Positions 1-64,000 of a stretch of 64,000 bases of DNA are shown here, piece after piece. Under the pieces are notes generated by a model. That model saw only the letters and a program-made list of their open reading frames with translations, was not told where the DNA came from and made no database searches. This stretch comes from Gemmatimonadaceae bacterium (GTDB lineage: Bacteria > Gemmatimonadota > Gemmatimonadetes > Gemmatimonadales > Gemmatimonadaceae). Each line of letters begins with the position of its first letter. Position 1 is the stretch's first letter. Position numbers and translations under genes: made by a program. The DNA lies in assembly GCA_031359795.1 (NCBI GenBank), contig JANMAM010000021.1:8542-72541 (forward strand). The letters run 5' to 3'.

Positions 1-2
1 TG

Positions 3-674
3 CAGTTCGGCATCCACGGTCCCGTCACGCCCGAGCAGCTCGTCGCGCTCGAACGAATTCAGCGCAGCCAGCGGCACCTGCTCGGCCTGATCAATGGCGT
101 GCTCAATTACTCACGCGTCGAAGCGGGAGTGGTGCACTACGACATCGCGGACATTCCGCTCGAGGAAACCCTCGGCATGTGCGAAGCGCTGATTGCTCCG
201 CAGCTGCATGCGAAGGGCCTGTCGCTCACGAATAGTGGTTGCCCGCCTGGCGCCTCCGTTCGCGCCGACCGCGAGAAGCTGCAGCAGGTCGTGCTCAACC
301 TGTTGTCCAACGCGGTGAAGTTCACTCCGGCGGGCGGACGCGTCGACATCGAGTGCGCGGCGGCGCCTAACGGCATGATGTGCGTGCGGGTCCGCGACAC
401 GGGCCGGGGAATCGCCGGCTCCCAGATCGAGCGGGTCTTCCAGCCGTTCGTGCAGGTGGACGCCGGCCTCACGCGCACCCAGGATGGCGTCGGCCTCGGC
501 CTGGCAATCAGTCGCGACCTGGCGCGGGGGATGGGTGGCGACCTGACGGTGGACAGCGAACCCGACGTCGGATCGGTCTTTACCTTGACCGTTCCGCTGG
601 CCGGCTCGGCGGGCCGGGGCGAGCGCGCTAGATTCGCAGAATCTCCAACCGAGAACTCCAATGCGCTCAGGTAG
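3..674 (+). CDS. Sensor histidine kinase, C-terminal part (5' end lies upstream of the window)
   Basis: Frame 3 is open from the window edge (QFGIHGPVTPEQLVALERIQRSQRHLLGLINGVLNYSRVEAG, the end of a HisKA helix). HATPase_c boxes follow: NLLSNAVKF, DTGRGI, GVGLGLAISRDLARGMGG. The M at 99 in the ORF track is internal. Confidence 0.9.
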   Translation, partial: QFGIHGPVTPEQLVALERIQRSQRHLLGLINGVLNYSRVEAGVVHYDIADIPLEETLGMCEALIAPQLHAKGLSLTNSGCPPGASVRADREKLQQVVLNLLSNAVKFTPAGGRVDIECAAAPNGMMCVRVRDTGRGIAGSQIERVFQPFVQVDAGLTRTQDGVGLGLAISRDLARGMGGDLTVDSEPDVGSVFTLTVPLAGSAGRGERARFAESPTENSNALR

Positions 675-1380
675 CTCCCCGCTCTGGATCGTCACCGCGA
701 TTGCGGCGGCAACGTGCGCGACGCCCGGCCCGCCGAATCGCGGCGCGCCGCCCGTGGTCGTGCCGAGGGTGGCAGCGCTCCCCGACACGGCGCGCTTCGC
801 GGCCGAGTTGAATGCCTTTGCGCGGGCCGACAGCGCCACGCCGCCACCGCCCGCGCCGGTACTCTTCGTCGGCAGCTCATCGATCCGGATGTGGGAGAGC
901 CTGGCCACGGACTTCCCGGGGGTGCCGCTGCTCAACCGCGGCTTCGGCGGATCGCGGATGGACGACGTGCTGCGCCATGCTGACCGCGTCGTCTTCCGCT
1001 ATCGCCCGCGCGCGATCGTGCTCTACGAAGGGGACAACGATCTCGAGGAAGGGAAGAGTCCCGCACGCGTGGCCGGCGAAGTCGCCGAGTTCCTGCAGCG
1101 CGTCCGGGTTGCGTTGCCGCTCGCGCGGGTCGTCTGCCTGTCGGTAAAACCAAGTCCAGCGCGCTGGCGGCTCGTCGACAAGGTGCGCGAGACGAACGCA
1201 CTGCTCGAGGCGGTGGTCTCCCGCGACACGATGGCAACGTTCGTGGATGTCTTCACGCCGATGCTCGGTGCCAACGGCCGGCCACGCCCCGAGCTGTTTG
1301 GCCCCGACTCGCTCCACATGACCCCCGCCGGCTACGCGGTCTGGCGGAGCGCGCTGGCACCGGCGCTCCCTCGTCGCTGA
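661..1380 (+). CDS. SGNH/GDSL-family hydrolase, probable lipoprotein
   Basis: The N-terminal signal has a Cys (TAIAAATCA). FVGSSSI (block I Ser), NRGFGGS and YEGDNDL are typical SGNH esterase blocks. It overlaps the upstream kinase stop by 14 nt. Confidence 0.75.
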   Translation: MRSGSSPLWIVTAIAAATCATPGPPNRGAPPVVVPRVAALPDTARFAAELNAFARADSATPPPPAPVLFVGSSSIRMWESLATDFPGVPLLNRGFGGSRMDDVLRHADRVVFRYRPRAIVLYEGDNDLEEGKSPARVAGEVAEFLQRVRVALPLARVVCLSVKPSPARWRLVDKVRETNALLEAVVSRDTMATFVDVFTPMLGANGRPRPELFGPDSLHMTPAGYAVWRSALAPALPRR

Positions 1381-1401
1381 CGGCGAGCCGCGCCGCGCTG
1401 C

Positions 1402-4400
1402 CTAACGGGGGGCGCGGATCGTGACCGTTACCTCGTGGTGCGCACCGTCATCGGATAGCGGAATCCGGCTGTCGGGCATCGGTGCTCCGTCGATCACGAC
1501 GTCCGACCGTCCACGATTGAGCGCGTCGGGGTTCTTCACCGTGACCCTGTAGCTGGCCGAGCCGTACCGGTAGTCGATCGTGTACTCCTTCCATGCGGCA
1601 GGTATGCATGGCTCGATCATGAGCCAGTGTCCCTGCTTTCTGAACCCGAGAATCGCCTCGAGTCCGACGCGGTACATCCAGCTCGCCGAGCCCGTGTACC
1701 ATGTCCATCCGCCGCGTCCGAGATGCCCCTCCGCCGTGTAGAGATCCGCGACCACGACGTATGGCTCGACCTTATAGATCTCGGCCGCCGCCCTCGTCGC
1801 GGTGTGCGTGAGTGGATTGATCATCTGGTACAGCTCGAACGCACGATCGCCCTTGCCCTGCAGCGCGGTCGCCAGCACTGCCCAGAGCGCGGCGTGCGTG
1901 TACTGCGCACCATTCTCGCGGACGCCTGGCAGGTAGCCCTTGATGTAGCCCGGGTCGTGCGCGGACTTGTCGAACGGCGGAGTCAGCAGCTTGAGGAGGC
2001 GCGCGTCATTGTCGACGAGATGCTCCTCGAACGAGGCCATCGCCCGCGCCTGGCGCTCGGGCGCACCGGCACCGCTGATGATGCTCCAGCTCTGGGCGAT
2101 CGAGTCGATCCGGCACTCGTCGCTCGTCACCGAGCCTAACGGCGACCCGTCGTCGAAGTAGGCGCGGCGGTACCAGTCGCCGTCCCACGAGGTCTCCTCG
2201 ATCGCCCGGACATACGCCTCGGCCTTGCCGCGGAAATCGGCGGCGACCGCGCTGTCGCCACGGTCGTCGGCGATCGCCGCGAAGCTGCGGAGCGTCGTGC
2301 TCAGGAACCACGCCAGCCACACCGTCTCGCCGCGGCCCTCGACGCCGACGCGGTTCATGCCGTCGTTCCAGTCGCCGATGCCGATCAGCGGCAACCCGTG
2401 CTCGCCCAGTGTGCACGCACGGCGCAGCGCGCGGACGCAGTGGTCGTAGACGCTCCCCGTCTCGCCGCTCGGTTGCGGAAGGTCGTAGACCTCGTGCTCG
2501 TGCGGCAGGAGTTGGCGCAGCGTCAGGAATGGTGCCTGCTCGTCCAGCACCGATGCATCGCCGGTGACGCGCACATAGTGCTCGACGACGTACGACAGCC
2601 AGGCAAGGTCGTCGCTGAACTTCGTCCGCACGCCGCGGCCACTGTGCGGGTGCCACCAGTGCTGAACGTCGCCTTCGACGAACTGCCGCCCCGCCGAGCG
2701 GACGATATGATCGCGCGCGAGCTTCGGCTCGGCGTAGACGAACGCCATCGAGTCCTGCAGCTGGTCACGGAATCCGTAGGCACCGCTGCTCTGGTAGAGC
2801 CCCGATCGTCCCCACATGCGGCACGACAGCGCCTGGTAGAGAATCCAGCGGTTCATCATCGCGTCGAATGCCGGCTCGGGTGTCCGGACCGTTATCGTCG
2901 ACAGCCGATCCTGCCAGCTCTTGATGGTCGTCGCGACCGCCGCGCGGGCGCCCTTGGCATCGCGACGTTTCGCGACCGCCGCGACCGCCGCCGCTTCGGT
3001 CGACGCCGCGCCAAGGACGATGACGACATCGCGCGACTCCCCCGGCCCGAGCACGAGCGCGCACTGCAGCGCGGCGCAGGGATCGAGTGCCGCCCCGACC
3101 GATCCGGCGAGCGGCGGCGCCTCGGCGCTGAGCGCGAACGGCGCGCCTAACGTTCCGTTGCGGCCGATGAACTCGCGCCGGTCGGCGGTGAAGCTCGTCA
3201 CCGGCTCGCTGATCGACGCGAACGCGACCCAATTCGCGAAGACGGGATCGAAGGTGTTGCGCGCGAAGATTGCACCTGTCGCCGCGTCGTACGACGTCGC
3301 CACCTGGTGCTGCGTGTGCTCGCGCGTCACGCCGAGCGTCCATTCGGTGTACGCCGTCATCGTCAATCGGCGCGTTCGCTTGCCGCGATTGGTGATACGC
3401 AGCGTCGAGAGCTTCACCGCCTCGTGCTCGTCGAGGCCGAGCGTCAGCTGCGTCGCGATCTCGTCGCGGACATGCTCGAACGACGACGCGCCGGCCGTGT
3501 GGCGAGCGACGTAAGGTTCCGGGCTCCGGATCGGGGCCGGCGTCGCGCTCCAGAGCGCGTGAGTCTCGTCATCGCGGAGGTAGATCACTTCCCCGGCCGG
3601 ATCGCTGATCGGGTCGTTCTGCCATGGCGTCAGGCGATAGAAAAAGCTGCTCTCCGCCCACGTGCATCCGGCGCCGCGCTCGCTGATGAGGAATCCCCCC
3701 CTCGCGTTCGCAACGCAGTTCACCCATGGCGCCGGTGGCACGGCATCGCCAGCGACGCGAATGAAATAATCGCTTTCCTCGGTCAGGCCGCCAAACCCGT
3801 TATCGAACCGGAGCGTCGGCGCGACGATTGGTGGGCTCAACACCGGAATTCCCGCGGATGGCGTCGGGCGGCTCGGACGCGGGGGCAACGGCTCAACCGG
3901 GTCGCGAGCGTATCCGTGCGCCGCGTCGGCCAGATGAAGCTTCGGATCGCGCATCGCGGCGTGCAGCCGCGAACGCTGCATCGCGAGCGTGTCCGACGTC
4001 GACTGCTGGGCCGCCACCTGCCGCCCATGCGCGGGATGATCCTCGGTCAGCTCCAGCTCGTCGAGCTCGGCAGCCGTCTTCGGATCGTCGAGGATGCGCG
4101 CGAGGGAACGCCCGTCGCAGGTCACATGGACGCGGGCCGTTGCGCGGAGCATCGCGAGCGTGTCGCCGGCAATGATGTCGACGCGCCGCACGTACACGCC
4201 GCCCGGACGATCAACCATCCCCGCGTCGCTCGATGCAAAGATCGCCGCCGTCACCTTGTCGTTCAGGTCCTGCAGATACGTTGGCGGATGCGTGTTGAGC
4301 ACCACCAAGTCGACCATCATTCCGCGACGGCGCCAGTAGTGGTGCGCGGACAGTATCTGTCGCAGCGTCGGCAGCCCGTCCATCGACGAGATCGTCGCGA

Positions 4401-7400
4401 GCAGAATCGGCCAGTCGCCGGACACGCCGAGGGTCCAGAGCAGCGGCTGCGATCCACGGTTGGCGAGGATCTCCTCTTCCGGCGCACGCAGCGCGGACGT
4501 CGGAAAGAAGAGATGGCCGGCCATTTCCTGAAACACCGCCGCGTCGGTCGGTGTCATCCCGAGCTCGCGAAGCTCGACCTGCGTCGAGGTCCACGCCAGG
4601 TCGAGCGCCCGTTGCGCCGCGTGCGGGTGATGGTATCGGTCGGCGAGCTGGAACGCGCGCGCGCGGCTGTCGGCGACGATTGTCGTGAACGCCACCGACG
4701 CCGAGCGTCCGGGGGCGATCGAGACCCGCGTCCGCAACGCGAAGATCGGATCGAGCACGGCACCGGTCGTCATCGACAGCGGGCCTTCACTGTCGAGCGC
4801 GACCGGATCGCGCGTCGACCGGCCACGTCCGACGAACCTGGCGCGATCGGTCTCGCACGTGGTCCTGCCGATCCGCTCCTTCCCGGTGTCGACGACGTGC
4901 ACGCACCAGAGCGATCGCTCGCCGGCCGAGCGAGGACGGCGTGTCGCGGTGATCGCGGTACACCACTCGTGCCACTCGGTCTCGACGAACAGGTTCGCGA
5001 ACGCGGGATGCGCGCGGTCGGCGTCCGGTGAGTGCAGCACGATCTCACCGTAGCTGGTCAGCTCGATCTCGCGGGCCTCGGTACTGTTGTTGGTGAGCGT
5101 CACCCGCCGCACTTCGGCGGAGTCGTCAGGCACGACGGCGATCTCGGTACTAGTCTCGATCCCGTCGTCGGAGCGGTGGAACGTCACCCGATCGGTGGCA
5201 AGCAGCGCCCGATACCACTCGGCCGGCGCACAGGTCGGCTGATACGCGGCCGACCAGACGCGCTTGCGGGTCGTGTCGCGGATGTAGCAGAACTGTCCGA
5301 TGTTGTCGCGCGTGCCGTCGGCGCGCCACCGCGTGATCGCGAGGTCCTCGTAGCGGCTGTACCCCGAGCCGCAGCTGGTGACCATGATCGTGTACGGGAG
5401 GTGGCCGAGCAGCGCGACGTGCGGCTGCGGGGTGTCCGGCGCGTCGATCTGCCTGACGGCGGGACGCTCGAGCTCCGGGTCGGGAAGCGACTCGTCGGGA
5501 CGGGCCTCCTGGGGCTCCTGCAGTACCAGCCGCCGCGGAATGCGTTCGTGCAGCAGCAGCTCGGCCGAGCGCACGAGCGGGTCGGCGTGGAAGCGTCGCT
5601 GCCAGAGGCCGTCGCGCAGCGAATTGGCGAGCGCGATCAGCCCCATCCCGATGTGGTGCGCCATGTAGGTCTTCACGAGGGCGAACCGTTCGCCGGGATC
5701 GGGACGCGTGTAGTCGAGGGCGTCGAGGAACCCGTACCTGCCTAACGCGCCGCGGCGCTCGAGGCGGGCGAGGTTGCCGAGCGCCTTTCCCGGATCGACG
5801 ACGACGGCGAGCGCCGATGCGTACGGCGCGATCACCAGGTCGCGGCCGAGGCCGCGCTTGAGCGCGAGGTTCGGGATGCCGAACGCACGGTACTGATAGG
5901 TCAGGTGGCGATCGCGGAGGTTGTAGGCGCTCTCGCTGGTCCCCCACGGAACGTCGCGCTCGTCGGCGTAGGCAATCTGCCGCTTGACCGCTCCCCGATA
6001 CGTCTGGTCGAGCACCGTGAACGGGAACGACTGCATCACCAGCACCGGCATCAGGTACTCGAACATGCTGCCGCTCCAGCTCACCAGCGCCGTTGCCCCG
6101 TCGGCGTGGGTGAGTGTCCGTCCGAGCCGGAACCAGTGCTCGACCGGGATGTCGTTCTTCGCGATCGCAATGAAGCTCGAGAGCCGTGCCTCGGACGCGA
6201 GCAGGTCGTAGTACGAGGCGTCGCGCGAGTGGTTGCTCTGCTGGTAGCCGATCGAGAACAGCTTCCGGCGCTCGTCATACAGGAAGCGGAAGTCCATTTC
6301 GAGCGCGTATGCGTAGGCGCGCGCGGCGATGGTCTCGAGGCGCGCCACGAGCTCCGAGGCGTCAGTGGACGCGATTGCGACCTCGCGCAGCGACGGCAGC
6401 TCGCCGGTGACGGACGATCCGCGCGGCGGCGTCACCGCCTGTGCCGCGGCGATGACGGCAAGGCGATCGGTTTCGTCGGCGAGGCGGATCGCTGTCCAGT
6501 CGAGCCACTCGATCGCCGGGTCGAGCACCTCGGCGGGGAGCTCCGACGCGCCTAACGCGAGCCGTGCCCGCTCGATCGGCGCCACTACCGCGGCGATCGC
6601 CGCCGGCTCCGGTGCGTTGGTGTGGATCGCCGCGAACGCGGTGCGGGCCAGGCGCACGAGCTTCGCCGCGTCGGCCACTGCGCCGAAGCTGAGTGGGGTG
6701 TCGGCGGCGCCCGAGGTCGCGAGCGTGGTGAGGCGGTCGTGCGCGATGTGCAGCGAGGCTGCTACCGCGCGCCAGAATCGCGGGCTCGACACCGGCCTGT
6801 CGGCGATGTGCAGGCACGACTGCCGGAGCGCGATCAGGTGGCCAGCCAGGTTGCCGCTGTCGACCGTCGAAATGTATGCCGGCTCGAGCACCGTCAGGTT
6901 GTGCAGCTCGTACCAGTTGTAGAAATGGCCGCGGAAGCGCCGCATCCGCTCGAGCGAGCGGAATGCTCTCTCGAGGCGAAGCGTCATTTCCTCGATCGAG
7001 ATGAAGCCGAGCTCCGCCGCGGTGGCGATCGCCATCAGCTGGAGCCCGATGTTCGTCGGCGACGTCCGCATCGCGACGGTCGGCGTCGGATCCTCCTGGA
7101 AGTTGTCGGGCGCGAGCCAGTTCGTTTCCTCGTTGACGAAGTAGTCGAAGAACCGCCAGTGGAGGAGCGCGTACCGGACCGCGGCTTCCTGGTTTGCCGC
7201 CGTCAGGCGCTGGGCGCGACGAAGCGCCGGCTTGCTCAGTGCCTGCGCGACCGCTGGCGACGCGATCCACATGCCGATGATCGGCATCGACACGAGCAGC
7301 AGCCGCCACCCGTCGATGATGCCGTGCCCGCGCGCGCCGGTCGCCATCGACACCTCGACGAGCCGCCAGGTGGAGAATGCGACCGTCGCGAGGGCGAGCA

Positions 7401-10341: not shown

Positions 10342-10458
10342 AGGTCTCGGATTGTCAGGGTGCAGCCAGTCCTGCCGCACGCGAAATAAACTCTCCGGGC
10401 AGCGATCCCGCGCCCCCGGGCTGTGCGCCGGGGACCCCGGCTGCCATCTTTGGCAGTC

Positions 10459-12078
10459 ATGCGATCGTCCGGCCCCCCGTCGCGCGTCGCCGCCCTCTGG
10501 CGCGCGACCTTCGCTCTCCGCGTGCTTCAGGCCGGAGCGCTCCTCGTCGTCCTCGCCGCGTCGCCCTACAAGCAGTTCGAGCTCGATCGCTTCTTCGTGC
10601 CGAAAGAGCTGGTGCTCCATGCAGTGGCAATGCTCGCGTCGCTGGCGCTGCTCGTCCAGACTCGGCGACTCGGTCTCGCCCGGGTCGACCAGTTTCTTGC
10701 GGCCTTCCTGGGCGCCGGCCTGCTCTCGGCGCTGTTCGCCCCGAATTGGTGGTTGACCGGACGCGCAGTGGCCGTGTCGCTCTCCGGCGCCGCCTGCTTC
10801 TGGGCCGCGCGGACGGTGGCCCGTGCCGGACTGGCGAGGCGTCTCGTTGGTGTCATCGCCTTCGCCGCCATCCTTGGCGCGGTGACAGCGCTGCTGCAGG
10901 CCTATGGGGTCCGGAGCGAGTACGTGAGCCTCAACCGCGCACCGGGTGGCACCTTCGGTAACCGCAATTTCATGGCGCACCTGGGGGTGATCGCCGCCCC
11001 GGCACTGGTGCTCGTCGCGCTGACGGCGCCCAATCGCGGGTCATTCGCGCGCTGGTCCGCCGGCAGCGGGCTCCTCGCGGCAGCGCTGTTCCTCTCGCGG
11101 AGCCGCGCGGCCTGGCTCGCGCTCATCGCTTGCGCGATCGCGGCCGTACCGTTAGGGATCGTGGCATTGCGCGGCGCCGGCGCCGCACTCCGCTGGAGTC
11201 GCGTGGTCCTCGTCGCCGCCGCTGCCGCAAGCGGGATCGGCCTGGCGCTGGTGCTCCCGAACACCCTCGACTGGAAAAGCGACTCTCCCTACCTCGACAC
11301 GGCGAAGAGCGTCGTCAACTACAAGGGGGGCAGTGGACGTGGACGGCTCGTCCAATACGGCAACACGCTCCGCATGGCGTCGCATCACCCGCTGCTCGGT
11401 GTCGGCCCGGGCAACTGGCCCGTCGTCTATCCGAAGTTCGCGTCGCGCGACGACCCGTCGCTTGCCGGCGATGGAATGACCGCCAACCCATGGCCGAGCA
11501 GTGACTGGATCACTTTTCTCTCGGAACGGGGGCTGGTTGCGTTCGTGCTCCTCGCGCTCGCGCTCGTTTCGCTGGTCGTGGACGGGGTCCGCGGGCTGGG
11601 CGCGAGTCGATCCCCGGAGGACCGGCTCAGCGCCGCCGCGCTGCTCGGCACCGTCGTCGTGCTCCTCGTCGTCGGCAGCTTCGACGCGGTCCTGCTCCTG
11701 CCGGTGAACGCGCTCATCGCCTGGTCGCTGCTCGGTGCGCTCTCCCCGCCGGGACGCGAGCGCGTCGCGGCCGACCTGTTCGCCGTTAGGCGGCTCGGCC
11801 TCATCGCGGCCGTCCTCCTGCTCGGCGGAATGGCGCTCTGGCGCAATGCGATCCAGGCCGCGGCGATGGACCTGTTCAGCAGTTCGTCGCGGGCGAGCGT
11901 CGTCGAGGCGGCGTCGACGCTTGATCCAGGGAGCTATCGCATTCATGTTCGTCTCGCTCGTGCCTATGTCGATCGGGGGAGCTGCACGAAGGCCCGACCG
12001 CACGCTCGCGCCGCACGGTCGCTGTTCCCCAACGCCGCCGAGCCGAAAGGGATACTGTCTCAATGCGGCGCCCGCTGA
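10459..12078 (+). CDS. O-antigen ligase (Wzy_C) family membrane protein with C-terminal TPR-like tail
   Basis: Polytopic membrane protein with GNRNFMAHLG and FLSRSRAAWLALIA motifs typical of the O-antigen ligase/Wzy_C family. The ATG at 10459 is preferred over the GTG at 10423. Confidence 0.7.
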   Translation: MRSSGPPSRVAALWRATFALRVLQAGALLVVLAASPYKQFELDRFFVPKELVLHAVAMLASLALLVQTRRLGLARVDQFLAAFLGAGLLSALFAPNWWLTGRAVAVSLSGAACFWAARTVARAGLARRLVGVIAFAAILGAVTALLQAYGVRSEYVSLNRAPGGTFGNRNFMAHLGVIAAPALVLVALTAPNRGSFARWSAGSGLLAAALFLSRSRAAWLALIACAIAAVPLGIVALRGAGAALRWSRVVLVAAAAASGIGLALVLPNTLDWKSDSPYLDTAKSVVNYKGGSGRGRLVQYGNTLRMASHHPLLGVGPGNWPVVYPKFASRDDPSLAGDGMTANPWPSSDWITFLSERGLVAFVLLALALVSLVVDGVRGLGASRSPEDRLSAAALLGTVVVLLVVGSFDAVLLLPVNALIAWSLLGALSPPGRERVAADLFAVRRLGLIAAVLLLGGMALWRNAIQAAAMDLFSSSSRASVVEAASTLDPGSYRIHVRLARAYVDRGSCTKARPHARAARSLFPNAAEPKGILSQCGAR

Positions 12079-14419: not shown

Positions 14420-14422
14420 CGA

Positions 14423-29183: not shown

Positions 29184-29212
29184 TGAAGTCACCTTGGCTG
29201 AGTGAGCGCTGC

Positions 29213-39702: not shown

Positions 39703-39720
39703 CGCTCCGGGAAATCGACC

Positions 39721-47244: not shown

Positions 47245-47318
47245 GCCGCGGGAATTCCGCCCGGAGTGCAGGGGCGGCGCCATCGAGCGTTAGGCGGCTA
47301 CCTTGAGGCAGGACGACG

Positions 47319-50327: not shown

Positions 50328-50330
50328 GCA

Positions 50331-53211: not shown

Positions 53212-56200
53212 TCATCCCCGCCAGTCACGACCGCGAACCGCCACCAGCAACGCTGGCACGAGGTACAGTGTGATCGGCGTCGAGAGCGTCAGCCCCCCGA
53301 TTACCGCGAGCGCGAGCGGCCGCTGCAGCTCGCTCCCCGCGCCAAGCCCTAACGCGAGCGGCAGCAGCCCGAAGAGCGTGCAGAGCGTCGTCATCAGGAT
53401 GGGTCGGAGGCGAATCCGTGCCGCCTCGCGGATCGCCGGCTCGAGCGTCAGGCCGTTCTCGCGCATCTGGTGGCGCGTGAAGTCGAGCAGGATGATGCCG
53501 TTCTTGACGATCAGCCCGACGAGCAGGATCAGGCCCATGAACGATGAGACATTGAGCGGCGTGCCCGTCACCAGCAGCAGCACCAGCGCGCCGACGAACG
53601 AGAGCGGCGCCGCGAGGAGCACGACGAGCGGTTCCACGAACGACTGAAACTGGATCACCATCACGCCGATCACGCTCAGCGCGGCCAGTCCGAGGACCGC
53701 GAGCAGGGCACGGAAGGCTGTCTGCTGGCTGGCATACTGCCCACCGATGTCCAGTCGCACCCCTGCCGGCGGCGGATGCGCCGCGAGAACCTGCTTCACG
53801 TCGCCGACCACGGCCCCGAGCGAGCGACCGCTCAGGTCGGCCGTCATCGAGATCAACTGCTGCTGGTTCTCGCGCAGGAGCGTCCCGCGTGTCTCGCCGG
53901 AGGTGAACGTCGCCAGCGTCCCGAGCGGCGCCGCCCGCCGCGTGTCCGGCGATACGATTGGAAGCGCGCCGAGTTGCTGCGGATCGAAACGCACGGAATC
54001 GGGCGCGCGCACTCTGACAGCGACCGACCGATCCTCGAGTCGCACTTCCCCCGCCGAAACCCCGAGTAGCGCTCCCGCCGCCGCGGCGCTCACCTGGGCG
54101 GGAGTCATCCCCATTCGCGCTGCCTCGACAGCGTCGATCGACATCGACATCTCAGCGGACGGCTCGCTGATTCCGTTGTAGAAGTCGGCGATCCCGTCGA
54201 TCTTCTCCAGCTCCGGTGTCACGCTCTCGGCGTACCTCTCGAGCACGCCGATGTCCGAGCCGAACAGCTTCACTTCGACCGGCTTCGCCGCGCCGGCGAG
54301 ATCGTTGATCACATCGGAGAGAATCTGCACGAACTCGATGCGCAGCCGCGGGACGGCGCTTTCGGCTTGAGCCCGCACATCATCGATGATCTCGAACGTC
54401 GAGCGGCTCCGCTGCCGCCCTGGTACGAGCCTCGCGACGATGTCGCCGACGTTCTGCTCGGTGGCGAACAGTCCGAGCTCGGCGCCAGTCCGCCGCGACG
54501 TACCGGTGACCTCGGGCATGCTCGCGAGGATCCGCTCGACGACGTGCACCTCGCGATCCGTCTCCGGCAACGACGTTCCGCCGGGCGAGACGTAATCCAC
54601 CACAAACGCTCCCTCGTCGATTTCGGGAAGGAAGCCGGTTCCCACGTATCTGTACGCGAGCGCGCCGCCCGCCACCAGCAGCAGGCCGCCGACCGCCAAC
54701 AGCTTTCCATGGTGGAGCACGGCGCCGAGCGAGCGTGCGTAGCGCACCGACAACGCATCGATCGCGCGACCCGCTCGAGCGAGCGCGCCATCCCGCTTCG
54801 CGACCCCGGGCGAGACCGATCCGGCGCGCTCGTCGGCCGTCGCTTCCGCCGAAAGGAATTGCTCGGCCATCAGCGGAATGATCGTCAACGCAAGCACGAG
54901 CGACACGAGCACGGCGATCGTCAACGTGATCGATAGCGTCTTGAACAGCTGACCTTCGACACCGGTGAGAAGCCCGAGTGGGAGGAAGACCACGACCGTC
55001 GTGAGCGTCGACGTCGTCACCGGCCAGATCAGCTCGCGCACCGCGTCGTGGATCGCGCGATCGCGATCCGGCGTCAGCTGCAGGTGCCTGACGATGTTCT
55101 CCGTGACCACCACGGCATCGTCGATGACGAGGCCAATCGCGATTGCCATCGCGCCAAGCGTCATCAGGTTGAAGCTCTGTCCGATGAGCGACATGATGAA
55201 CACGGTCATCGCCATCGTCAGGGGGATTGCCGACGCACTGATCGCGGTGATCCGCGCCTGGCGGAGGAAGATCAGCAGGATGAGCACGGCCAGCGCGGCG
55301 CCGATCAGCATCGCGTCGCGCACCGACGTCACCGCATCGCGGACGAGCGCTGCCTGATCGTAGACCGGCTTCAGCCGCACACCGGGCGGGAGCGTCTTCC
55401 GAATCGTCGCGGCGATCGCAGCGACGCTGTCGGCGATGGCGACCGTGTTGCCGCCCAGCTGCCGGGTGATGTTGAGCAGCGCCGCCGGACGCCCGTCGCC
55501 AGCGATGATCCTGACGTGATCCTCGGTCCCGTTGATCACAGTCGCGATGTCGCGCACGCGCGTCGAGCCGCGAACGACCACGTTCCCGATGTCGTCGGAC
55601 GAGTGCGCCTCCGACGTGGTGACGATCAGGAACTGCTTGTAGTTCGCCGGCATCCGTCCTACCGCGCTGACATCAGTCGCGCTGCGAATCGCCGACGCGA
55701 CATCATCGTAACTGAGTCCGAGCGAGCTGAGTCGCGCCGGATCGGCGATCACTTCGATCTCGCGCACGTCGCTTCCCTGCACGTCGACGCGTCCCACGCC
55801 CGGCACGCGCGACACCAGTGGCCGGATCTCGTAGCGAGCGATGTCATGAAGCGTCGCCGCGTCGCCGCCCTCGATGTTGTACGAAAGTACCGGAAAGAGC
55901 GATGGCGTCAGGCGCTCAACCTCCAGGCTCACCTGCGCCGGGAGATCGCCACTGATCTGATTGACGCGTTGCTGCGTCTGCTGCAGCGCGTAGGCCATGT
56001 CCGTGTTTTCCGAGAACGTGATGTTCGTCTCGCTCCCACCCCGGATGACCCGCGACTGTACTCGCGTCACCCCGGGAACGATGCTCACCGCTTCCTCGAT
56101 CGGCCTCGTCACGCCGAACAGCACCTGGCGGGCGCCTAACGCGGAGCCCGAGGCGACCACCGTGATCCGCGAGAACTGCAGCTCCGGGTAGATCGCCGAC

Positions 56201-57410: not shown

Positions 57411-58711
57411 CAGGGTGTTGGCGATGCCGTCAGGGTAAGTGCGCGCAGCATCGCCGAAGCAATCCACGCCCGCGCCAGGTCTTCGATGTGCCGCGCCACG
57501 ATTTCCCGCGCGTTGCGCTGCGCCTCTAGAACGTTAGGCAGGGTCGATGCTCCCTCGCGGTAGGCAACGATCGACATCGCGGCGACTCGATTGGCGCTCT
57601 CGACCACCACCCGTCCCCGCGCGATTCGGGCGATCGCGCCTGCCTGCTCGCGCCGCGCCTGCGCGATCCGGGTGTGGCTCTCGAGACGGGCGAGCGCCAG
57701 ATCGGCGATTGCCCGCTGCCGTTCGGCCACCGCCGTTGCCACCGCCCCGCGGTTGCGGTTGAACAGGGGCAGCGGCAGTGCGAGTCCGATGATCGGGAGG
57801 ATCCCGGTCTCCCCACCGCTTGGATCGTGCGTCTCGATTCCCGCGAGAATGCTCGGCGCGCCCCACGTTGCCCGCCGTTCTGCGGCAAGGCTGAGCGTCG
57901 CGGACTGAAGCCCCGCCACGGCAGCCGCGACGCCGAGCGGCTCGCCCGATAGCGAGTCGACAGCGGGCGGCGCGTTGAGCGAATCGGTGGGAATCGGCTC
58001 GATTGTGTCACCACTGAGACCGATCGCCAGCTGCAGATCGAGTAGCGCCGAGCGGAGCGTCAGCGAATCGCTGGCAGCGGCGTTCGCCTGCTGTCCCGCG
58101 TTGACGCGGGCCAGCTCGACATCGAGTTCGCTCGCGTCGCCTGCGTCGCGTCGCGCGATCGCCATGCGCAACAACGTGTCGGCGTCAGCGGCGGTCCGGG
58201 CGGATAGCTCCGTGCGCGCCTCCGCCGCGAGCGCAATCGTGTAGCTCGTGTCAGCATCGAGTACTGCCGAAGCGCGCGCGAAGCCGTAACGCAGCCGAGC
58301 CGCCGCGACGGCGAACCGCGCCGAGCCGACACGAGCGTTTCGTATCCAGGGAAACGGAACTGGAAGATCGAGCTCCGCGTGATACTGCGGGACCGACTTC
58401 GTGTACGTCGCCGTGAGCATCGGGTTCGCGAGCGCTCGTGCCGAGAGCAGCTGTGCAGCGGCGACGAGAGTGTCGGCCTGCGCTGTCGGCAACCGCGTCC
58501 CGCGGGTGAGCGCCGCGGCGATCGCGGCACGCCGGGTCAGTGGAACGCGGGTTTGCTGCGCAATTGCCGCGGCGGGCGCGAGGTTGGTTACGCCGGCCAG
58601 GCACGCGACGCCGGCGACGCCAGCGAGCAGACGCGATCGGGAATTCGCCGAGCGGAACGGAATTGAAGGTCGCACAGCCATATGATACCACGCCGAACCT
58701 ATTCGCCGCAT
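57410..58711 (-). CDS. TolC-family outer-membrane efflux protein
   Basis: Two-repeat helical OEP pattern with a signal peptide. It is the first efflux gene of the OMF-MFP-RND order. Confidence 0.8.
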   Translation of the reverse strand: MRRIGSAWYHMAVRPSIPFRSANSRSRLLAGVAGVACLAGVTNLAPAAAIAQQTRVPLTRRAAIAAALTRGTRLPTAQADTLVAAAQLLSARALANPMLTATYTKSVPQYHAELDLPVPFPWIRNARVGSARFAVAAARLRYGFARASAVLDADTSYTIALAAEARTELSARTAADADTLLRMAIARRDAGDASELDVELARVNAGQQANAAASDSLTLRSALLDLQLAIGLSGDTIEPIPTDSLNAPPAVDSLSGEPLGVAAAVAGLQSATLSLAAERRATWGAPSILAGIETHDPSGGETGILPIIGLALPLPLFNRNRGAVATAVAERQRAIADLALARLESHTRIAQARREQAGAIARIARGRVVVESANRVAAMSIVAYREGASTLPNVLEAQRNAREIVARHIEDLARAWIASAMLRALTLTASPTP

Positions 58712-59889: not shown

Positions 59890-61197
59890 GTGGCCCCTCC
59901 CCCGATCGGGGTCGGCAGCGCGGCCCGCTCGAGTGCCGGCGTTCCAAAGCCCAGGGTCGTGATTCTCGGCGGGGGCTTCGCCGGACTGTACGCCGCCCGG
60001 GTTTTCCGGCACGCGCCCGTGGACCTCGTCGTCGTCGATCGAACCAATCACCACCTCTTCCAGCCGTTGCTCTACCAGGTCGCGACCGCGTTGCTCGCTC
60101 CAAGCGACATCGCCGTCCCGATCCGCTGGCGACTCCGCGCGCAGCGCAACACCTCGGTCGTTCTCGCCGAGGTCGAGCGCATCGACCTCGCCACCCGCAC
60201 GGTGGTGCTCGACCGGGATCCGCGGTCGCTCGCCTACGACTACCTGATCGTCGCAACCGGCGCACGCCACGCCTACTTTGGCCACGCCGAGTGGGAACAG
60301 CTTGCACCGGGTCTCAAGAGTCTCGACGACGCGCTCGAGATGCGCCGCCGCTTTCTCGGCGCATTCGAGCGCGCCGAGTGGGAGGGGTCGGCGGAGGAAC
60401 GTGAGGCGTTGCTCACCTTCGTGATCGTCGGCGGCGGGCCGACTGGGGTCGAGCTCGCGGGGATGATCCGACCCGCGTCGAGCCACACCTTCCCGCGCGA
60501 GTTCCGGCGCATCGACACCACGAGGGCCCGCGTCATTCTCATCGAAGGCGGACCGCGGCTGCTGCCCGCAATGCCCGAGTCGCTGTCCGACAAGGCGCGC
60601 CAGGATCTCGAGGTGTTGGGCGTCGAAGTGCGGTTGAACACGATTGTTACCGCGGTCGCCGAAGGCTCGGTGATGATCGGCGACGAGCGGATCAACGCCC
60701 GCACGGTGTTCTGGGCCGCCGGCAACGCTGCCTCTCCGTTAGGCGCGCAGCTGGGGGTTCCGCTCGAGCGCGCGGGGCGGATTCGACCGAGTGCGGACCT
60801 GTCCCTTCCGAATCATCCCGAGGTGTTCGTGGCCGGCGACCTCTCTGTCATCGACCAGGGTGGACGGGTCGTCCCGGCCGTCGCTCCCGCGGCGATGCAG
60901 CAGGGCACGCTCGCCGCGCACAACATCCTCCGGTCGATCCTTGGCCAGCCGCGACGACCCTTTCACTATGTCGACAAAGGCGACCTCGCGACGATCGGTC
61001 GCCACCGGGCGATCGCGTCGTTCGGTCAGGGGCGCATCAGGCTGCACGGCCGCCTCGCGTGGTGGTTCTGGCTCTTCCTCCACATCGTCTATCTGGCGGG
61101 CTTTCGCAACCGGGCGAGCGTCCTCGTTCAATGGGCGTATTCCTACTTCACCTACCAGCGCGGTGCCCGGCTGATCGGCGCCCAGAAGCGGCTGTAG
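59890..61197 (+). CDS. ndh: Type II NADH dehydrogenase-like FAD/NAD(P)-dependent oxidoreductase
   Basis: VVILGGGFAGL, NHHLFQPLLYQVA, VIVGGGPTGVELAG and FVAGD are NDH-2 blocks. The GTG start lies 5 nt after the mscL stop; the track start at 59746 overlaps mscL. Confidence 0.8.
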   Translation: MAPPPIGVGSAARSSAGVPKPRVVILGGGFAGLYAARVFRHAPVDLVVVDRTNHHLFQPLLYQVATALLAPSDIAVPIRWRLRAQRNTSVVLAEVERIDLATRTVVLDRDPRSLAYDYLIVATGARHAYFGHAEWEQLAPGLKSLDDALEMRRRFLGAFERAEWEGSAEEREALLTFVIVGGGPTGVELAGMIRPASSHTFPREFRRIDTTRARVILIEGGPRLLPAMPESLSDKARQDLEVLGVEVRLNTIVTAVAEGSVMIGDERINARTVFWAAGNAASPLGAQLGVPLERAGRIRPSADLSLPNHPEVFVAGDLSVIDQGGRVVPAVAPAAMQQGTLAAHNILRSILGQPRRPFHYVDKGDLATIGRHRAIASFGQGRIRLHGRLAWWFWLFLHIVYLAGFRNRASVLVQWAYSYFTYQRGARLIGAQKRL

Positions 61198-61375
61198 CAG
61201 TGCGCCGCGGCTGGACGGCGTCGCTCGGCGAAGCCGGTCTCGGCAAACGGATGGCGCGCGTGTCCCCGGCGGCGGGTCGTCGCGAGAGCTATCCTGCCTG
61301 ACGGTCGGCACCGGCCCCTGGCGGATGGCGACATCGGATTGGCGAGTTGCGCGCCGATTCGCTATGTTCGCTGAA

Positions 61376-61428
61376 CCTAACGGTCGCGATTTGCTCGAAC
61401 TGCGCGGGCTCTCGGCCGGACCGTTAGT
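61376..61428. repeat. Inverted pair of the extended motif in an intergenic region
   Basis: CCTAACGGTC (61376-61385) and GACCGTTAGT (61419-61428) are complementary at 9 of 10 positions and are separated by 33 nt. Confidence 0.7.
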
Positions 61429-62110: not shown

Positions 62111-63790
62111 ATGCTTCGCCCATTCTCCCGCGCCGCCCTCGCGGCGCTCGCCGTCGCCGCCTGCGCACAGGCACCGGCCACGACGACGTCGAGCGCGCCG
62201 TCCCCGGCCGCCGCCGCATCCGCCATCACCACCGCCGACCTGCGCACGCGCCTCTACGCCTACGCCGATGATTCGATGCGCGGCCGTCAGGCGGGAACCG
62301 TCGACAATCTCCGCGCGGCCGCGTGGCTCGCCGAGCAGGCGCGCCGCCTCGGGCTTCAGCCGGGGGGAGACAACGGCACCTTCTTTCAGGACGTGCCGCT
62401 CATCCGCCGCGGGTTGGTCGCGGGCGCATCGCTCTCGGTCGACGGCACTGCGTACACGCTCTGGACCGATTTTGCGCCCCTCGACGTCGGCACTGCATCA
62501 CCATCGATCGACGGTGTCGGGAGCGTGTTCGTCGGTCGCCTCGCTGACACTGCGTCGATGTCTCCGCCGGCGGTTGGCGCGGGCAAGGTCGTCATCGTCC
62601 GCGCCGCCCCTGGGATGCCGATCTTCCTGGCAGCGCAGCGCGCTGCCTCACGCTATCCGCAGGCGGTCGCCGTCGCCTTCGCCAACCAGGACGCGATCGT
62701 CAAGCAGGTCGGCCTGTATTTCGCGGACGGCCAGGTCACGTTGAAAAACGACGAGATGCCCGCTCGGGCAACGACGCCGGGTCTCATCATCATGGGCACA
62801 CGGCTCACCAGTGCGCTCGTCAGCGGTGATCTCGAGACGCTTGCCGCCGGCAAGGCGGGCAAGACGGTCCGCGGCTCCCTCGGCTTTGTCGAGACGACGG
62901 CGCCCGCTCGCAACGTGATCGCGATTCTTCCCGGAACCGATCCGGCGCTTCGCGGCGAATACGTCGCCCTTGGCGCGCACAATGACCACATCGGTGTGCG
63001 CAAAGGCGGCATCGACCACGACTCGCTGCGTGCGTTCAACCAGGCGCTGCATCGCCTCGGCGCGGCCGACCCGTTCGCGCAGATCGATCCCGCGAAACGC
63101 GCGACGATTCGTGTGAACGTCGACAGCCTCCACGCTGTTCGCCCGGCGCGTATCGATTCCGTCTTCAACGGTGCTGATGACGACGGCTCGGGATCGGTCG
63201 GCCTGATCGAGATCGCCGAAGCGTGGAAGAACGCGCAGGGCGCGGATCGGCCGCGCCGCTCGGTGATCTTCGTCTGGCACACCGCCGAGGAGCTCGGGCT
63301 GTTCGGGTCGGAGTACTTCACCGATCACCCGACGATTCCGCGCGACTCGATCGTTGCGCAGGTGAACATCGACATGATCGGTCGCGGCAGCGCACTCGAT
63401 GTCGACGGCGGTGGCCCGCGCTACGTCGAGCTGATCGGCCCGCGCCGGCTGTCGACGGAGTACGCGCAATTGATCGAGCAGGTGAATTCGCGCGAACCGG
63501 TTCCGTTCACCATCGACTACTCGCTCGACGCCGACGGTCATCCCGAGAACATCTACTGCCGCAGCGACCACGCGAACTATGCCCGCTACGGCATCCCGGT
63601 CGCCTTCTTCTCGACCGGCCAGCACAGCGACTATCACCAGGTCTCGGACGAGCCGCAGTACATCGACTACGATCACTACGCTTCAGTCGTCCGCTTCGTC
63701 TATGACGTCGCCCGTACCGTCGCCAACCGCGACGCGCGCCTGGTCGTCGACAAGCCTAAGCCCGATCCCAAGGCGCAATGCCGGCAGTAG
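62111..63790 (+). CDS. M28-family metallopeptidase with PA-like insert, lipoprotein/secreted
   Basis: Signal MLRPFSRAALAALAVAACA. Zinc-ligand blocks GAHNDHIG, DDDGSGSVGLIE, HTAEELGLFGS and CRSDHANY. The start is set at ATG 62111. Confidence 0.85.
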   Translation: MLRPFSRAALAALAVAACAQAPATTTSSAPSPAAAASAITTADLRTRLYAYADDSMRGRQAGTVDNLRAAAWLAEQARRLGLQPGGDNGTFFQDVPLIRRGLVAGASLSVDGTAYTLWTDFAPLDVGTASPSIDGVGSVFVGRLADTASMSPPAVGAGKVVIVRAAPGMPIFLAAQRAASRYPQAVAVAFANQDAIVKQVGLYFADGQVTLKNDEMPARATTPGLIIMGTRLTSALVSGDLETLAAGKAGKTVRGSLGFVETTAPARNVIAILPGTDPALRGEYVALGAHNDHIGVRKGGIDHDSLRAFNQALHRLGAADPFAQIDPAKRATIRVNVDSLHAVRPARIDSVFNGADDDGSGSVGLIEIAEAWKNAQGADRPRRSVIFVWHTAEELGLFGSEYFTDHPTIPRDSIVAQVNIDMIGRGSALDVDGGGPRYVELIGPRRLSTEYAQLIEQVNSREPVPFTIDYSLDADGHPENIYCRSDHANYARYGIPVAFFSTGQHSDYHQVSDEPQYIDYDHYASVVRFVYDVARTVANRDARLVVDKPKPDPKAQCRQ

Positions 63791-63795
63791 TATCG

Positions 63796-63835
63796 CGTTA
63801 GGCCTGCCTGCCGCCTGCCGCCAGACCGCCTAACG
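63796..63835. repeat. Inverted pair of the CGTTAGGC octamer between convergent gene ends
   Basis: CGTTAGGC (63796-63803) and GCCTAACG (63828-63835) flank 24 nt (CTGCCTGCCGCCTGCCGCCAGACC). The right copy supplies the TAG stop of the minus-strand partial gene. Confidence 0.85.
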
Positions 63836-64000
63836 GTAGCGCCTGGGCAGCAGCACGCGCACGCTGTCCCGGAATTCGTACTGGTCGCCGGCACCGGTGC
63901 GGAGCCAGAAGCGGATCCGTTTCATGCCGGTGTCAGCGTAGGCGTGCTGCAGGCGGATGCTCACACCGCTGCCCAACGGATCTCCAAGGCGGCCGGCGCG
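63830..64000 (-). CDS. 3' end of an unidentified gene (5' part beyond the window)
   Basis: The minus-strand frame is open from the window edge and has high GC3: ...GSGVSIRLQHAYADTGMKRIRFWLRTGAGDQYEFRDSVRVLLPRRYR, then TAG at 63830-63832. It is not in the ORF track because it has no start codon in the window. Confidence 0.55.
   Translation of the reverse strand, partial: RAGRLGDPLGSGVSIRLQHAYADTGMKRIRFWLRTGAGDQYEFRDSVRVLLPRRYR

Follow-up and report, generated by a model that had tools for sequence, protein, structure and literature searches.

Why should a short word recur roughly every kilobase throughout the genes of a bacterium, against its codon preference, and at which level is such a word maintained? 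We addressed this question in a 64,000-nt stretch of DNA (hereafter, the window) from an uncultured bacterium of the Gemmatimonadaceae, a family of soil bacteria. The sequence-only reading of the window had listed 50 sites of the heptamer CGTTAGG, and all 50 coordinates and strands were reproduced exactly; 44 of these sites extend to the octamer CGTTAGGC/GCCTAACG. To our knowledge, comparable behavior, that is, genic placement against codon preference, is known only for DNA-uptake tags and the cyanobacterial HIP1. No description of CGTTAGGC as a hyper-abundant word was found in the literature searched.

Abundance of the word in the window

The observed number of octamers was compared to several null models. 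Across 100 shuffles that preserve the dinucleotides of the window, the mean is 1.14 copies (sd 1.0, maximum 4) versus the 44 observed, and Markov models of orders 1 to 3 predict 0.9 to 1.8. A further control was a synonymous-codon shuffle, in which all proteins and codon counts are held constant: the coding DNA of the window contains 37 octamers versus 0.60 expected (maximum 4, 300 runs). Chance is rejected as the origin of this density. The earlier estimate of 2 to 3 octamers was slightly generous, because the shuffles and Markov models give lower values; the enrichment itself stands, including against the codon-aware null. The sites, together with those of the variant CGTCAGGC, are as follows (coordinates, strand, context).

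Octamer CGTTAGGC:
365..372 (-), antisense in CDS 3-674(+), GCG-CCT-AAC-GGC = APNG
1400..1407 (-), CGT-TAG stop of glucan synthase CDS 1402-10980(-)
2134..2141 (-), sense CCG-TTA-GGC = PLG
3145..3152 (-), sense ACG-TTA-GGC = TLG
5740..5747 (-), sense GCG-TTA-GGC = ALG; kept in L005, L010
6550..6557 (-), sense ALG; kept in L005, L010
7869..7876 (+), antisense CCT-AAC = PN
9112..9119 (-), sense TLG
9652..9659 (-), sense TLG; kept in L005, L009, L010
11784..11791 (+), sense GTT-AGG = VR
12208..12215 (+), sense GTT-AGG = VR
15280..15287 (+), antisense PN, ppc; kept in 7/8 relatives
15572..15579 (-), sense ACG-TTA-GGC = TLG, ppc; relatives ACG-CTC-GAC (TLD)
17734..17741 (+), sense ALG
18281..18288 (-), sense PLG
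20434..20441 (-), sense ALG
22059..22066 (+), antisense PN
22828..22835 (-), sense TLG
28185..28192 (-), sense ALG
29121..29128 (-), sense ALG
29211..29218 (-), CGT-TAG stop of CDS 29213-30463(-)
29810..29817 (-), sense ALG
30442..30449 (+), antisense PN
31696..31703 (-), sense ALG
34772..34779 (+), sense VR
37646..37653 (-), sense TLG
38756..38763 (+), sense ALG
38967..38974 (-), antisense PN
39697..39704 (-), GCC-TAA stop of CDS ending 39702(+)
40415..40422 (+), sense ALG
41502..41509 (-), antisense PN
42011..42018 (+), sense PLG
44812..44819 (+), sense ALG
46129..46136 (+), sense TCG-TTA-GGC = SLG
47288..47295 (+), intergenic
49319..49326 (-), antisense PN
50322..50329 (+), CGT-TAG stop of CDS ending 50327(+)
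51077..51084 (-), antisense PN
52646..52653 (+), sense PLG
56134..56141 (-), sense ALG
57532..57539 (+), antisense PN
60737..60744 (+), sense PLG
63796..63803 (+), intergenic; stop of CDS ending 63790(+) 6 nt before
63828..63835 (-), CGT-TAG stop, minus-strand gene running off the window

Heptamer CGTTAGG:
11150..11156 (+), CGTTAGGG, sense PLG; octamer complete in L005, L009, L010, L012
20025..20031 (+), CGTTAGGA, intergenic
28295..28301 (+), antisense PN
41231..41237 (+), sense TLG
53348..53354 (-), sense ALG
61376..61382 (-), CGTTAGGT, outside called genes

Variant CGTCAGGC:
3628..3635 (+), antisense CGC-CTG-ACG = RLT
5124..5131 (+), antisense CCT-GAC = PD
5451..5458 (-), sense GTC-AGG = VR
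7201..7208 (+), antisense RLT; GTTAGGC at the same place in L009
7798..7805 (+), antisense SLT
14226..14233 (-), antisense GLT
14414..14421 (-), spans TGA stop of CDS 12194-14419(+); CGTTAGGC there in L005
20899..20906 (+), antisense RLT
23318..23325 (+), sense ACG-TCA-GGC = TSG
23909..23916 (+), antisense PD
24123..24130 (-), sense SSG
26457..26464 (-), antisense SLT
29354..29361 (+), antisense RLT
32116..32123 (+), antisense RLT
32219..32226 (-), sense CGT-CAG-GCA = RQA
35791..35798 (+), sense PSG; overlaps the 35797..35804 copy (14-bp palindrome)
35797..35804 (-), antisense GLT
36382..36389 (+), sense TSG
42485..42492 (-), antisense PD
42968..42975 (-), antisense PD
43112..43119 (+), sense VR
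45973..45980 (-), antisense RLT
48505..48512 (-), antisense RLT
48686..48693 (-), antisense PD
49313..49320 (+), sense VR; overlaps the 49319..49326 copy
49430..49437 (-), antisense PD
49463..49470 (+), sense VR
51038..51045 (-), antisense PD
51386..51393 (+), sense RQA
51492..51499 (+), sense ASG
53446..53453 (+), antisense GLT
55086..55093 (-), sense VR
55906..55913 (+), antisense RLT
61296..61303 (-), outside called genes
62285..62292 (+), sense RQA

Reading frames and conservation

Independent gene calls yielded the same breakdown of the 50 heptamer sites as before: (i) 27 sense sites xCG-TTA-GGx; (ii) three sense sites GTT-AGG; (iii) 11 antisense sites CCT-AAC; (iv) five sites that supply the stop codon (CGT-TAG in four, GCC-TAA in one); and (v) four intergenic sites. 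The word includes the stop codon in 5 of ~42 window genes and in 35 of 383 Gemmatirosa genes. The statement that no in-frame TTA occurs outside the motif holds for 27 of the 29 in-frame TTA codons in the window; one of the other two lies in GGTTAGGC and one is codon 4 of a gene with an uncertain start. All permissive frames on both strands are occupied by CGTTAGGC, and occupancy drops with rising codon cost: among compatible sites in the window, it is 10/16 for Pro-Asn, 24/59 for [APST]-Leu-Gly and 3/26 for Val-Arg, and the corresponding Gemmatirosa values are 89/156, 145/574 and 14/342, with 10/241 in the CTA frame. Occupancy peaks in the antisense Pro-Asn frame, and ~40% of the coding copies involve no TTA codon, which argues against a role in RNA or translation; of the two levels proposed earlier, DNA or RNA, only DNA is retained. 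TTA regulation was likewise rejected as the role of CGTTAGGC.

In orthologous comparisons, at ~78% nucleotide identity, the word was kept in 32 of 49 cases versus 15-23% for all octamers, a retention three to four times that of average octamers. Both gain and loss were found among orthologous sites, including an Asp to Gly change in ppc. The suggestion that the protein is never altered, made with the Leu of the VPLFETLGDL block of ppc as an example, is correct for the conserved Leu, but not for the Gly that the motif requires, which is Asp in most relatives. The proposal of a DNA-level motif threaded through reading frames is upheld by the codon-aware null, by the use of all permissive frames on both strands and by conservation at orthologous sites.

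Distribution among relatives and the integron core site

Related MAGs, the cultured Gemmatirosa kalamazoonensis and strain T265 all show an enrichment of CGTTAGGC, by 25- to 70-fold. Relative to codon-aware nulls, the excess is 40- to 70-fold, with the window included: we found 70 octamers versus 1.1 expected in close relatives, 25 versus 0.67 in Gemmatirosa, T265 and one MAG combined, and 260 versus 6.4 on Gemmatirosa plasmid 1. Densities range from 0.4 to 1.1 copies per kb. The carriers are the window's clade together with Gemmatirosa, T265 and L021; four other Gemmatimonadales/Gemmatimonadota loci (8-23 kb) contain 0, 0, 0 and 1 copies. The window's clade also tolerates C at position 4, that is, CGTCAGGC, which is enriched there as well; in Gemmatirosa, the tolerance is for T or A in the first position instead, and the variant enrichments are unequal among lineages. 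The tolerated positions differ; therefore, the motif has dialects within a family-level clade distribution.

The word is identical to the consensus integron attC core site, as seen in the ~84-cassette Gemmatirosa integron. None of the window copies is an attC site, and the cassette interiors (31.7 kb) contain 3 copies versus 21.6 expected, a ~7-fold depletion in mobile DNA. The enrichment of CGTCAGGC, the restriction to one clade and the core-site identity extend the sequence-only reading.

Polarity and the putative role

The word has no replication or transcription polarity. The window contains 21 plus-strand and 23 minus-strand octamers under a single-signed GC skew, and on the 1.1-Mb Gemmatirosa plasmid 1, 220 of 405 copies (54%) are co-oriented with the G-rich strand, which rules against the Chi or KOPS function considered earlier. 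After counting compatible sites, sense and antisense occupancy are similar; orientation goes with frame compatibility and not with the replichore, as had been suggested. Inverted intergenic pairs, mentioned before in the plural, are no general feature: they come down to a single pair in the window with no stable hairpin, inverted pairs are not in excess, and the word does not serve in terminators. In the window, the copies are spaced only marginally more evenly than at random (CV 0.75, P=0.04); on the Gemmatirosa plasmid, their spacing is random (CV 0.94 versus 0.98). No conserved flanks were found. Modification, another earlier option, finds no counterpart in G. kalamazoonensis, for whose SMRT methylome no m6A or m4C motif matching CGTTAGGC was reported (PMC3974934).

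The statistics, conservation, lack of polarity and clade distribution are direct observations, and CGTTAGGC is a hyper-abundant, lineage-specific word that a sub-clade of Gemmatimonadaceae maintains at the level of double-stranded DNA. The best reading, at a probability of about 0.35, is a tag on double-stranded DNA that may mark self DNA for uptake. The enrichment scale is similar to that of the Neisseria DUS, the Pasteurellaceae USS and HIP1, in line with the likeness drawn earlier; however, DUS and USS are longer, and CGTTAGGC has no conserved flanks. Any orientation-independent DNA-binding function fits equally well and is matched by all of the positive evidence to the same degree as an uptake tag. 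Several points count against the uptake tag specifically: the shortness of the word, the lack of flanks, of an inverted-pair surplus and of terminator use, the marginally even or random spacing, and the attC core-site identity, which this model leaves unexplained. Furthermore, natural transformation in Gemmatimonadota is without any report in the literature searched.

Under the uptake-tag model, we infer a sequence-specific DNA-binding protein that would read CGTTAGGC in both orientations, and an uptake bias. The most likely role would be that of a self-DNA tag in DNA uptake and natural transformation, comparable to the Neisseria DUS and Pasteurellaceae USS. Word-bearing fragments would be preferentially taken up and recombined, so that copies would spread via molecular drive or be kept by selection where the protein code permits. 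This spread would be offset by the burden of using rare codons (TTA, CCT, AGG, CTA) and, at some sites, of replacing an amino acid. Recognition specificity may have drifted among lineages, with C also accepted at position 4 (CGTCAGGC) in the window's clade and T or A at position 1 in Gemmatirosa.

Abundance, variants and polarity of the octamer

The octamer CGTTAGGC, together with its reverse-complement reading GCCTAACG, occurs 44 times in the window, compared to 1.14 copies (sd 1.0, maximum 4) in 100 dinucleotide-preserving shuffles. The G+C content of the window is 67.7%. Markov models of low order give 0.9 to 1.8 copies, and the observed count is reached only from order 4 upward, where the models already hold the sub-words of the motif itself. 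The sequence-only reading had listed 50 copies of the underlying heptamer (CGTTAGG/CCTAACG), and all of its coordinates were reproduced exactly. The motif contains 50 of the 53 TTAGG pentamers of the window and accounts for approximately one-third of all TTA/TAA trinucleotides. Genes were called using a codon log-odds model trained on long ORFs, which yielded 41 genes covering 92% of the window; the called reading frames agree with Pfam and with the gene tables of near-identical metagenome contigs. In the codon-aware null model, synonymous codons were shuffled in 300 runs, while every protein and the pooled codon counts were kept. The enrichment persists under this control: 37 octamers are observed in coding DNA versus 0.60 expected (maximum 4 in 300 runs). 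Chance or composition as the origin of the pattern is ruled out by the dinucleotide, Markov and synonymous-codon nulls, and no other 8-mer of the window is comparably enriched, except for words overlapping the octamer.

The copies in the window sit within housekeeping genes. Individual features are as follows.

Window features (positions, strand where assigned, description)
1402-10980, minus strand: 3192-aa ORF with two GH94 domains, a glucoamylase domain and a weak GT2 match (cyclic beta-1,2-glucan synthase type); 8 T-form and 5 C-form motif copies
19913-20140: 227-bp spacer between the genes for an outer-membrane beta-barrel protein and a BTAD regulator, with only the heptamer CGTTAGGA
22836-28184: longest stretch free of the T form (5.4 kb), of lower G+C (0.65-0.66); genes for a methyltransferase, an AHSA1 protein, a sugar-phosphate isomerase-like protein, a 3-keto-disaccharide hydrolase and an MFS transporter; four copies of the C form CGTCAGGC; an octamer of the relative L005 lies opposite window position 24837

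The C form CGTCAGGC, which carries C at position 4 in place of the T of CGTTAGGC (T form), is the next most enriched 8-mer of the window, with 33 copies in coding DNA versus 5.0 expected (z = 13.7). It likewise forces the use of rare codons, e.g., CCT at 7 of 26 Pro-Asp sites versus a baseline of 5%, with TCA, AGG and CGT behaving similarly, and it occupies 13 of the 34 [CGRS]-Leu-Thr sites through CTG. It is also enriched in close relatives (36 versus 9.9 expected), but not in Gemmatirosa, strain T265 and the comparison locus L021 (5 versus 4.3), nor on the Gemmatirosa plasmid (55 versus 47), where TGTTAGGC (32 versus 1.8) and AGTTAGGC (10 versus 1.3) are enriched instead. These differences amount to lineage-specific dialects of the motif. 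Two copies overlapping head-to-head form the 14-bp palindrome CGTYAGGCCTRACG at window positions 35791-35804 and 49313-49326 and at position 4544 of locus L014; with only three cases in 827 kb, such dimers are no general feature of the motif.

The whole window has a negative GC skew, which places it within one replichore, and the octamer is found in 21 plus and 23 minus orientations. In eleven 50-kb samples of the 1.1-Mb Gemmatirosa replicon, 220 of 405 copies (54%) are on the locally G-rich strand, an imbalance that can be explained by gene-strand bias; relative to the number of compatible sites, sense and antisense frames are occupied to a similar degree. In the window, the copies are spaced a little more evenly than expected at random (CV 0.75 versus 0.96, P = 0.04), and on the Gemmatirosa plasmid their spacing is random (CV 0.94 versus 0.98); regular spacing, being marginal in the one and absent in the other, was rejected as a property of the motif. 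Forty-eight intergenic copies examined show no conserved flanks or extended consensus. Inverted intergenic pairs, which the sequence-only reading took for a feature of the motif, are not in excess. The one inverted pair of the window (63796/63829) folds no better than shuffles (z = +0.75) and its right-hand copy is a stop codon; therefore, a terminator hairpin at this place was rejected.

Reading frames, orthologous sites and host range

With our own gene calls, the earlier frame breakdown of the 50 heptamer copies proved right: 27 are xCG-TTA-GGx, 3 are GTT-AGG, 11 are antisense CCT-AAC, 5 supply a stop codon and 4 are intergenic. The stop-supplying copies read CGT-TAG or GCC-TAA, and one of them closes a minus-strand gene that continues beyond the right edge of the window. 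The statement that no in-frame TTA codon lies outside the motif holds largely but not strictly, with 27 of 29 such codons inside the motif and two outside. We then expressed the placement as frame occupancy, i.e., the number of copies divided by the number of peptides able to host the octamer without a change of the protein.

Frame occupancy of the octamer (frame; window; Gemmatirosa plasmid 1, counted over 447 kb of coding DNA)
x-Pro-Asn-[ADEGV]; 10/16; 89/156
[APST]-Leu-Gly; 24/59; 145/574
Val-Arg; 3/26; 14/342
[CGRS]-Leu-Thr via CTA; 0/34; 10/241

The rank order is identical in the window and on the plasmid, where the octamer also contains the stop codon of 35 of 383 genes. Thus, occupancy drops as the required codons grow in number and rarity, as expected if an advantage or drive acting on the DNA is offset by a cost in translation. 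The same occupancies rule out a signal read in mRNA or through the decoding of TTA; hence, of the suggestion that the motif is selected or generated at the DNA or RNA level, the DNA part stands and the RNA part does not.

Nucleotide identity between the window and its syntenic relatives is approximately 78%, and of the aligned octamers overall only 15-23% are unchanged. The motif, in contrast, is kept at orthologous positions in 32 of 49 comparisons starting from the window and in 32 of 60 starting from the relatives; the C variant is kept in 7 of 18. Sites have also been gained and lost among relatives, often through several substitutions. In the PEP carboxylase gene (ppc), the window and L021 have ACG-TTA-GGC (Thr-Leu-Gly), whereas most relatives have ACG-CTC-GAC (Thr-Leu-Asp), so that the sequence-only view of a motif leaving proteins unaltered fails at this site. 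The ppc of T265 (L020:11663) carries the decayed form CGTTAAGC (Thr-Leu-Ser), with the rare TTA codon retained; judging from the sequence, this seems to be the remnant of an octamer once present at the site where the window and L021 still hold the intact word. The retention and the change in ppc together indicate that the motif is conserved as DNA, sometimes altering the protein at tolerant positions. At the shortest distance, ENA soil-metagenome contigs with 99.4-99.5% identity to the window encode one of its proteins (163 aa) without any change. The organism is present in the soil metagenomes ERZ27315198 and ERZ28573519. None of the differences between the near-identical strains falls in a motif site, but with approximately 0.3-0.7 expected per comparison, the numbers are too small to give this comparison any power.

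The PEP carboxylase of the window is 79-88% identical to its homologues in Gemmatimonadaceae MAGs, and every one of those loci has the octamer, at 0.3 to 1.1 copies per kb. More distant carriers are a 1.1-Mb MAG contig, the isolate T265 (10 octamers in 22.9 kb) and Gemmatirosa kalamazoonensis KBS708 (ppc 73% identical), whose chromosome, plasmid 1 and plasmid 2 yielded 9, 405 and 32 octamers in 22.8, 550 and 50 kb, respectively. Loci from Kofleriaceae and Sulfuritalea have at most one copy each. Four further loci, which carry the labels Gemmatimonadales, Gemmatimonadaceae or Gemmatimonadota, contain 0, 0, 0 and 1 octamers in 22.8, 15.7, 8.4 and 12.4 kb, respectively, and no alternative hyper-abundant word; the 8.4-kb sample is a non-array flank of the integron-bearing MAG L036, reached through its intI and lacking ppc, and the ppc of the other three is approximately 68-69% identical to that of the window. 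It should be noted that the samples are small (8-50 kb per genome); on this basis, the comparison of carriers and non-carriers suggests that the trait is confined to one sub-clade. On the Gemmatirosa chromosome, we also observed an intergenic run of tandem CGGGACT heptamers followed by tandem copies of the reverse complement GAGTCCC (L019:7264-7370), a long potential hairpin.

The integron of Gemmatirosa plasmid 1

One plasmid 1 sample (L031) contains 65 octamer copies, mostly as pairs GCCTAACG–~73 nt–CGTTAGGC between small same-strand ORFs. These pairs align as a hairpin of R''-L''...L'-R' architecture, with compensatory changes at 13 base pairs. A covariance model of attC built from 11 Gemmatirosa sites finds approximately 84 sites between L031:10834 and L034:6173, every one of them on the same strand; the hairpins are approximately 107 nt each and end in GGCCTAACG...CGTTAGGCC.

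Integron features of Gemmatirosa plasmid 1
L031:10834-50000 and L034:1-7786 (NZ_CP007129, ~810.8-857.8 kb): large sedentary integron
L034:6827-7786, minus strand: integron integrase gene, co-oriented with the cassettes, not divergent

The array-adjacent gene is 52% identical to IntI1 over 319 residues and is named integron integrase at NCBI. The cassette interiors have approximately 70% G+C, compared to 73% for the rest of the replicon, and contain 3 octamers versus 21.6 expected (P = 8e-7); mobile DNA lacks the mark.

The R box of attC has the consensus GTTRRRY at the core site and RYYYAAC at the inverse core, and the attC matches in four integrons are consistent with it. The octamer, C plus GTTAGGC, fits this textbook core site, as judged by inspection. 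By our count, only approximately 0.4% of all octamers contain a match to GTTRRRY; therefore, the coincidence is non-trivial, and a functional link is kept as a minority hypothesis. The exact octamer is present at only 26 and 25 of the 69 attC ends, the others being ordinary RYYYAAC/GTTRRRY variants.

In the window and the chromosomal loci, all covariance-model matches have E > 0.8, i.e., no attC was found, and tblastn found no homologue of intI. Copies of the window are rejected as attC sites, having no covariance-model site, L box, hairpin, cassette array or intI: they share GTTAGGC/GCCTAAC and the flanking C/G with the Gemmatirosa attC sites, which begin and end with the octamer, but they are single sites in double-stranded coding DNA. 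Cassette insertion was considered for the heptamer near 20.0 kb, where L010 (1932-4605) and L007 (4517-7181), both relatives of the window, have a 2.6-kb gene (~800 codons) at the position of the spacer and the window has none; it was rejected, the segment being a normal gene that itself contains octamers.

Integrons with the same R box were found in a Minicystis MAG (L035) and two unclassified metagenome contigs (L037, L038), all with octamer-free non-array flanks; L036 has a single attC match without an exact octamer and an octamer-free non-array flank. Such flanks show that carrying an integron does not by itself produce the genome-wide pattern. The attC sites of L035, L037 and L038 match the Gemmatirosa-built model at 28-95 bits and lie downstream of intI on the same strand, the co-oriented layout seen in Gemmatirosa.

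Candidate explanations and their meaning

The octamer is a hyper-abundant word on double-stranded DNA, independent of orientation, limited to one clade, conserved, balanced against codon cost and depleted in mobile DNA, and we infer that a sequence-specific protein reads it. To our knowledge, only DNA uptake sequences (DUS, USS) and HIP1 have this signature, and the ranking of explanations follows from that. The first-ranked reading, to which we give a probability of roughly 0.35, is by analogy that the octamer may be a self-DNA tag of the DUS/USS kind. Part of the probability, beyond this reading and the five alternatives that follow, was left for explanations not considered here. Like DUS and USS, the octamer occurs approximately once per kb, far above composition and codon expectations, uses both orientations equally with no replichore polarity, is mostly intragenic in permissive frames, is rarer in mobile DNA and, in samples of 8-50 kb per genome, is common to genera of one family-level clade, absent outside it and split into lineage-specific dialects (compare PMC3630211). 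Unlike them, it is 8 bp long with no conserved flanks, is unrelated in sequence and is not placed in inverted-repeat terminators (frequent inverted pairs are typical of DUS/USS, although not strictly defining), and Gemmatimonadota is a phylum without reported transformation. No competence genes (type IV pilus, ComEA/ComEC, DprA) were found in the 64-kb window.

The second-ranked explanation, itself possible but tentative, is a site read by an abundant chromosomal protein, which could be nucleoid-associated, a factor in repair or, for example, part of a very-short-patch-like system of mismatch correction; the site would be kept by selection in cis or generated by biased repair and have no role in uptake. 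Hyper-abundance, orthologous conservation and lack of polarity fit it equally, and the T/C transition pair CGTTAGGC/CGTCAGGC is of the kind that a mismatch-correction bias could create; conversely, the C variant is enriched in one sub-lineage only, and the repair biases known to us give few-fold enrichments, not 40- to 70-fold. The precedent is HIP1 (GCGATCGC) of cyanobacteria, an equally abundant octamer whose function was obscure for decades and is described as unproven, with enrichments of tens- to hundreds-fold over codon-aware nulls (PMC5861425; bioRxiv 10.64898/2026.06.24.733823). The likeness lies in the excess over a codon-aware null and in conservation at orthologous sites beyond neutral expectation. 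The octamer differs from HIP1 in being non-palindromic (CGTTAGGC is not its own reverse complement), in lacking periodic spacing, in overlapping no methyltransferase site or m6A motif reported from the SMRT methylome of Gemmatirosa, and in its sub-family distribution, HIP1 being phylum-wide. HIP1 itself is now proposed as an uptake-type signal (bioRxiv 10.64898/2026.06.24.733823).

It is doubtful that the integron integrase, or a tyrosine recombinase related to it, uses the genome-wide octamers as its sites, whether as secondary insertion sites, a titration sink or raw material for attC. The integrase and approximately 84 attC hairpins of plasmid 1, and the match to a core site that so few octamers contain, speak for such a role. 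However, attC and intI are missing from the window and chromosomal loci, most attC ends carry other variants, the flanks of the integrons in L035-L038 are octamer-free, and the enriched variant GTCAGGC is without the GTT crossover triplet. Furthermore, IntI needs an L box and a hairpin, whereas these are single R boxes with neither, and recombination sites active in essential genes would be harmful.

A target of a restriction-modification or other epigenetic system is very unlikely, even though the octamer is asymmetric and of defined sequence. Genomes usually avoid restriction targets rather than accumulate them. Only three m6A motifs, RGATCY, ATGCAC and CCAGN7TCA, are listed in the SMRT methylome of G. 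kalamazoonensis (PMC3974934), and the octamer overlaps none of them.

The option of a Chi- or KOPS-type polar motif guiding RecBCD/AddAB or FtsK, which the sequence-only reading had also raised, is scarcely credible. Such words are likewise short and over-represented in core genes, but the octamer has no replication-linked polarity and no strong dif-pointing skew, as seen in its even orientation under the uniformly negative skew of the window and its 54% co-orientation on the 1.1-Mb replicon; known Chi sites also show enrichments far below that of the octamer. The least probable alternative of all is a translational or RNA-level signal, in which a rare TTA-Leu codon always stands in the same context, as under bldA-type control or in an mRNA motif: the concentration of in-frame TTA codons inside the motif would favor it, but the antisense Pro-Asn, Val-Arg, stop-codon and intergenic copies of the window, as well as the Pro-Asn occupancy in Gemmatirosa, the highest of all frames, extend the signal beyond in-frame sense TTA across strands and frames and refute a codon or translation effect; TTA usage is the consequence and the motif is the cause.

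Among the papers available to the literature search, none links the octamer to Gemmatimonadota or uptake sequences to Gemmatimonas, and none treats integrons, attC and Gemmatimonadetes together. We regard as improbable the combined claim that the octamer serves as a new tag for self-recognition or uptake, which would make it the third or fourth known system of this kind and the first from Gemmatimonadota, and that its identity with the core site is no coincidence, a DNA-recognition system and integrons reading the same word. If this were true, uptake of kin DNA could be coupled to cassette capture, or R-box half-sites strewn through genes could seed new attC sites and cassettes. The sequence shared by octamer and integron core site opens a testable connection with the unsolved origin of attC. 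Words of such genome-wide abundance are found in very few lineages (DUS, USS, HIP1), and these serve as models for DNA-level drive or selection on coding sequence and for kin-DNA recognition. The present case comes from an abundant, poorly studied soil phylum and overrides codon usage and, occasionally, protein sequence. Since two strains in culture carry the octamer, experiments on uptake, binding and methylation are feasible at once, and the octamer can serve as a simple marker when Gemmatimonadaceae genomes are binned or screened for foreign DNA.
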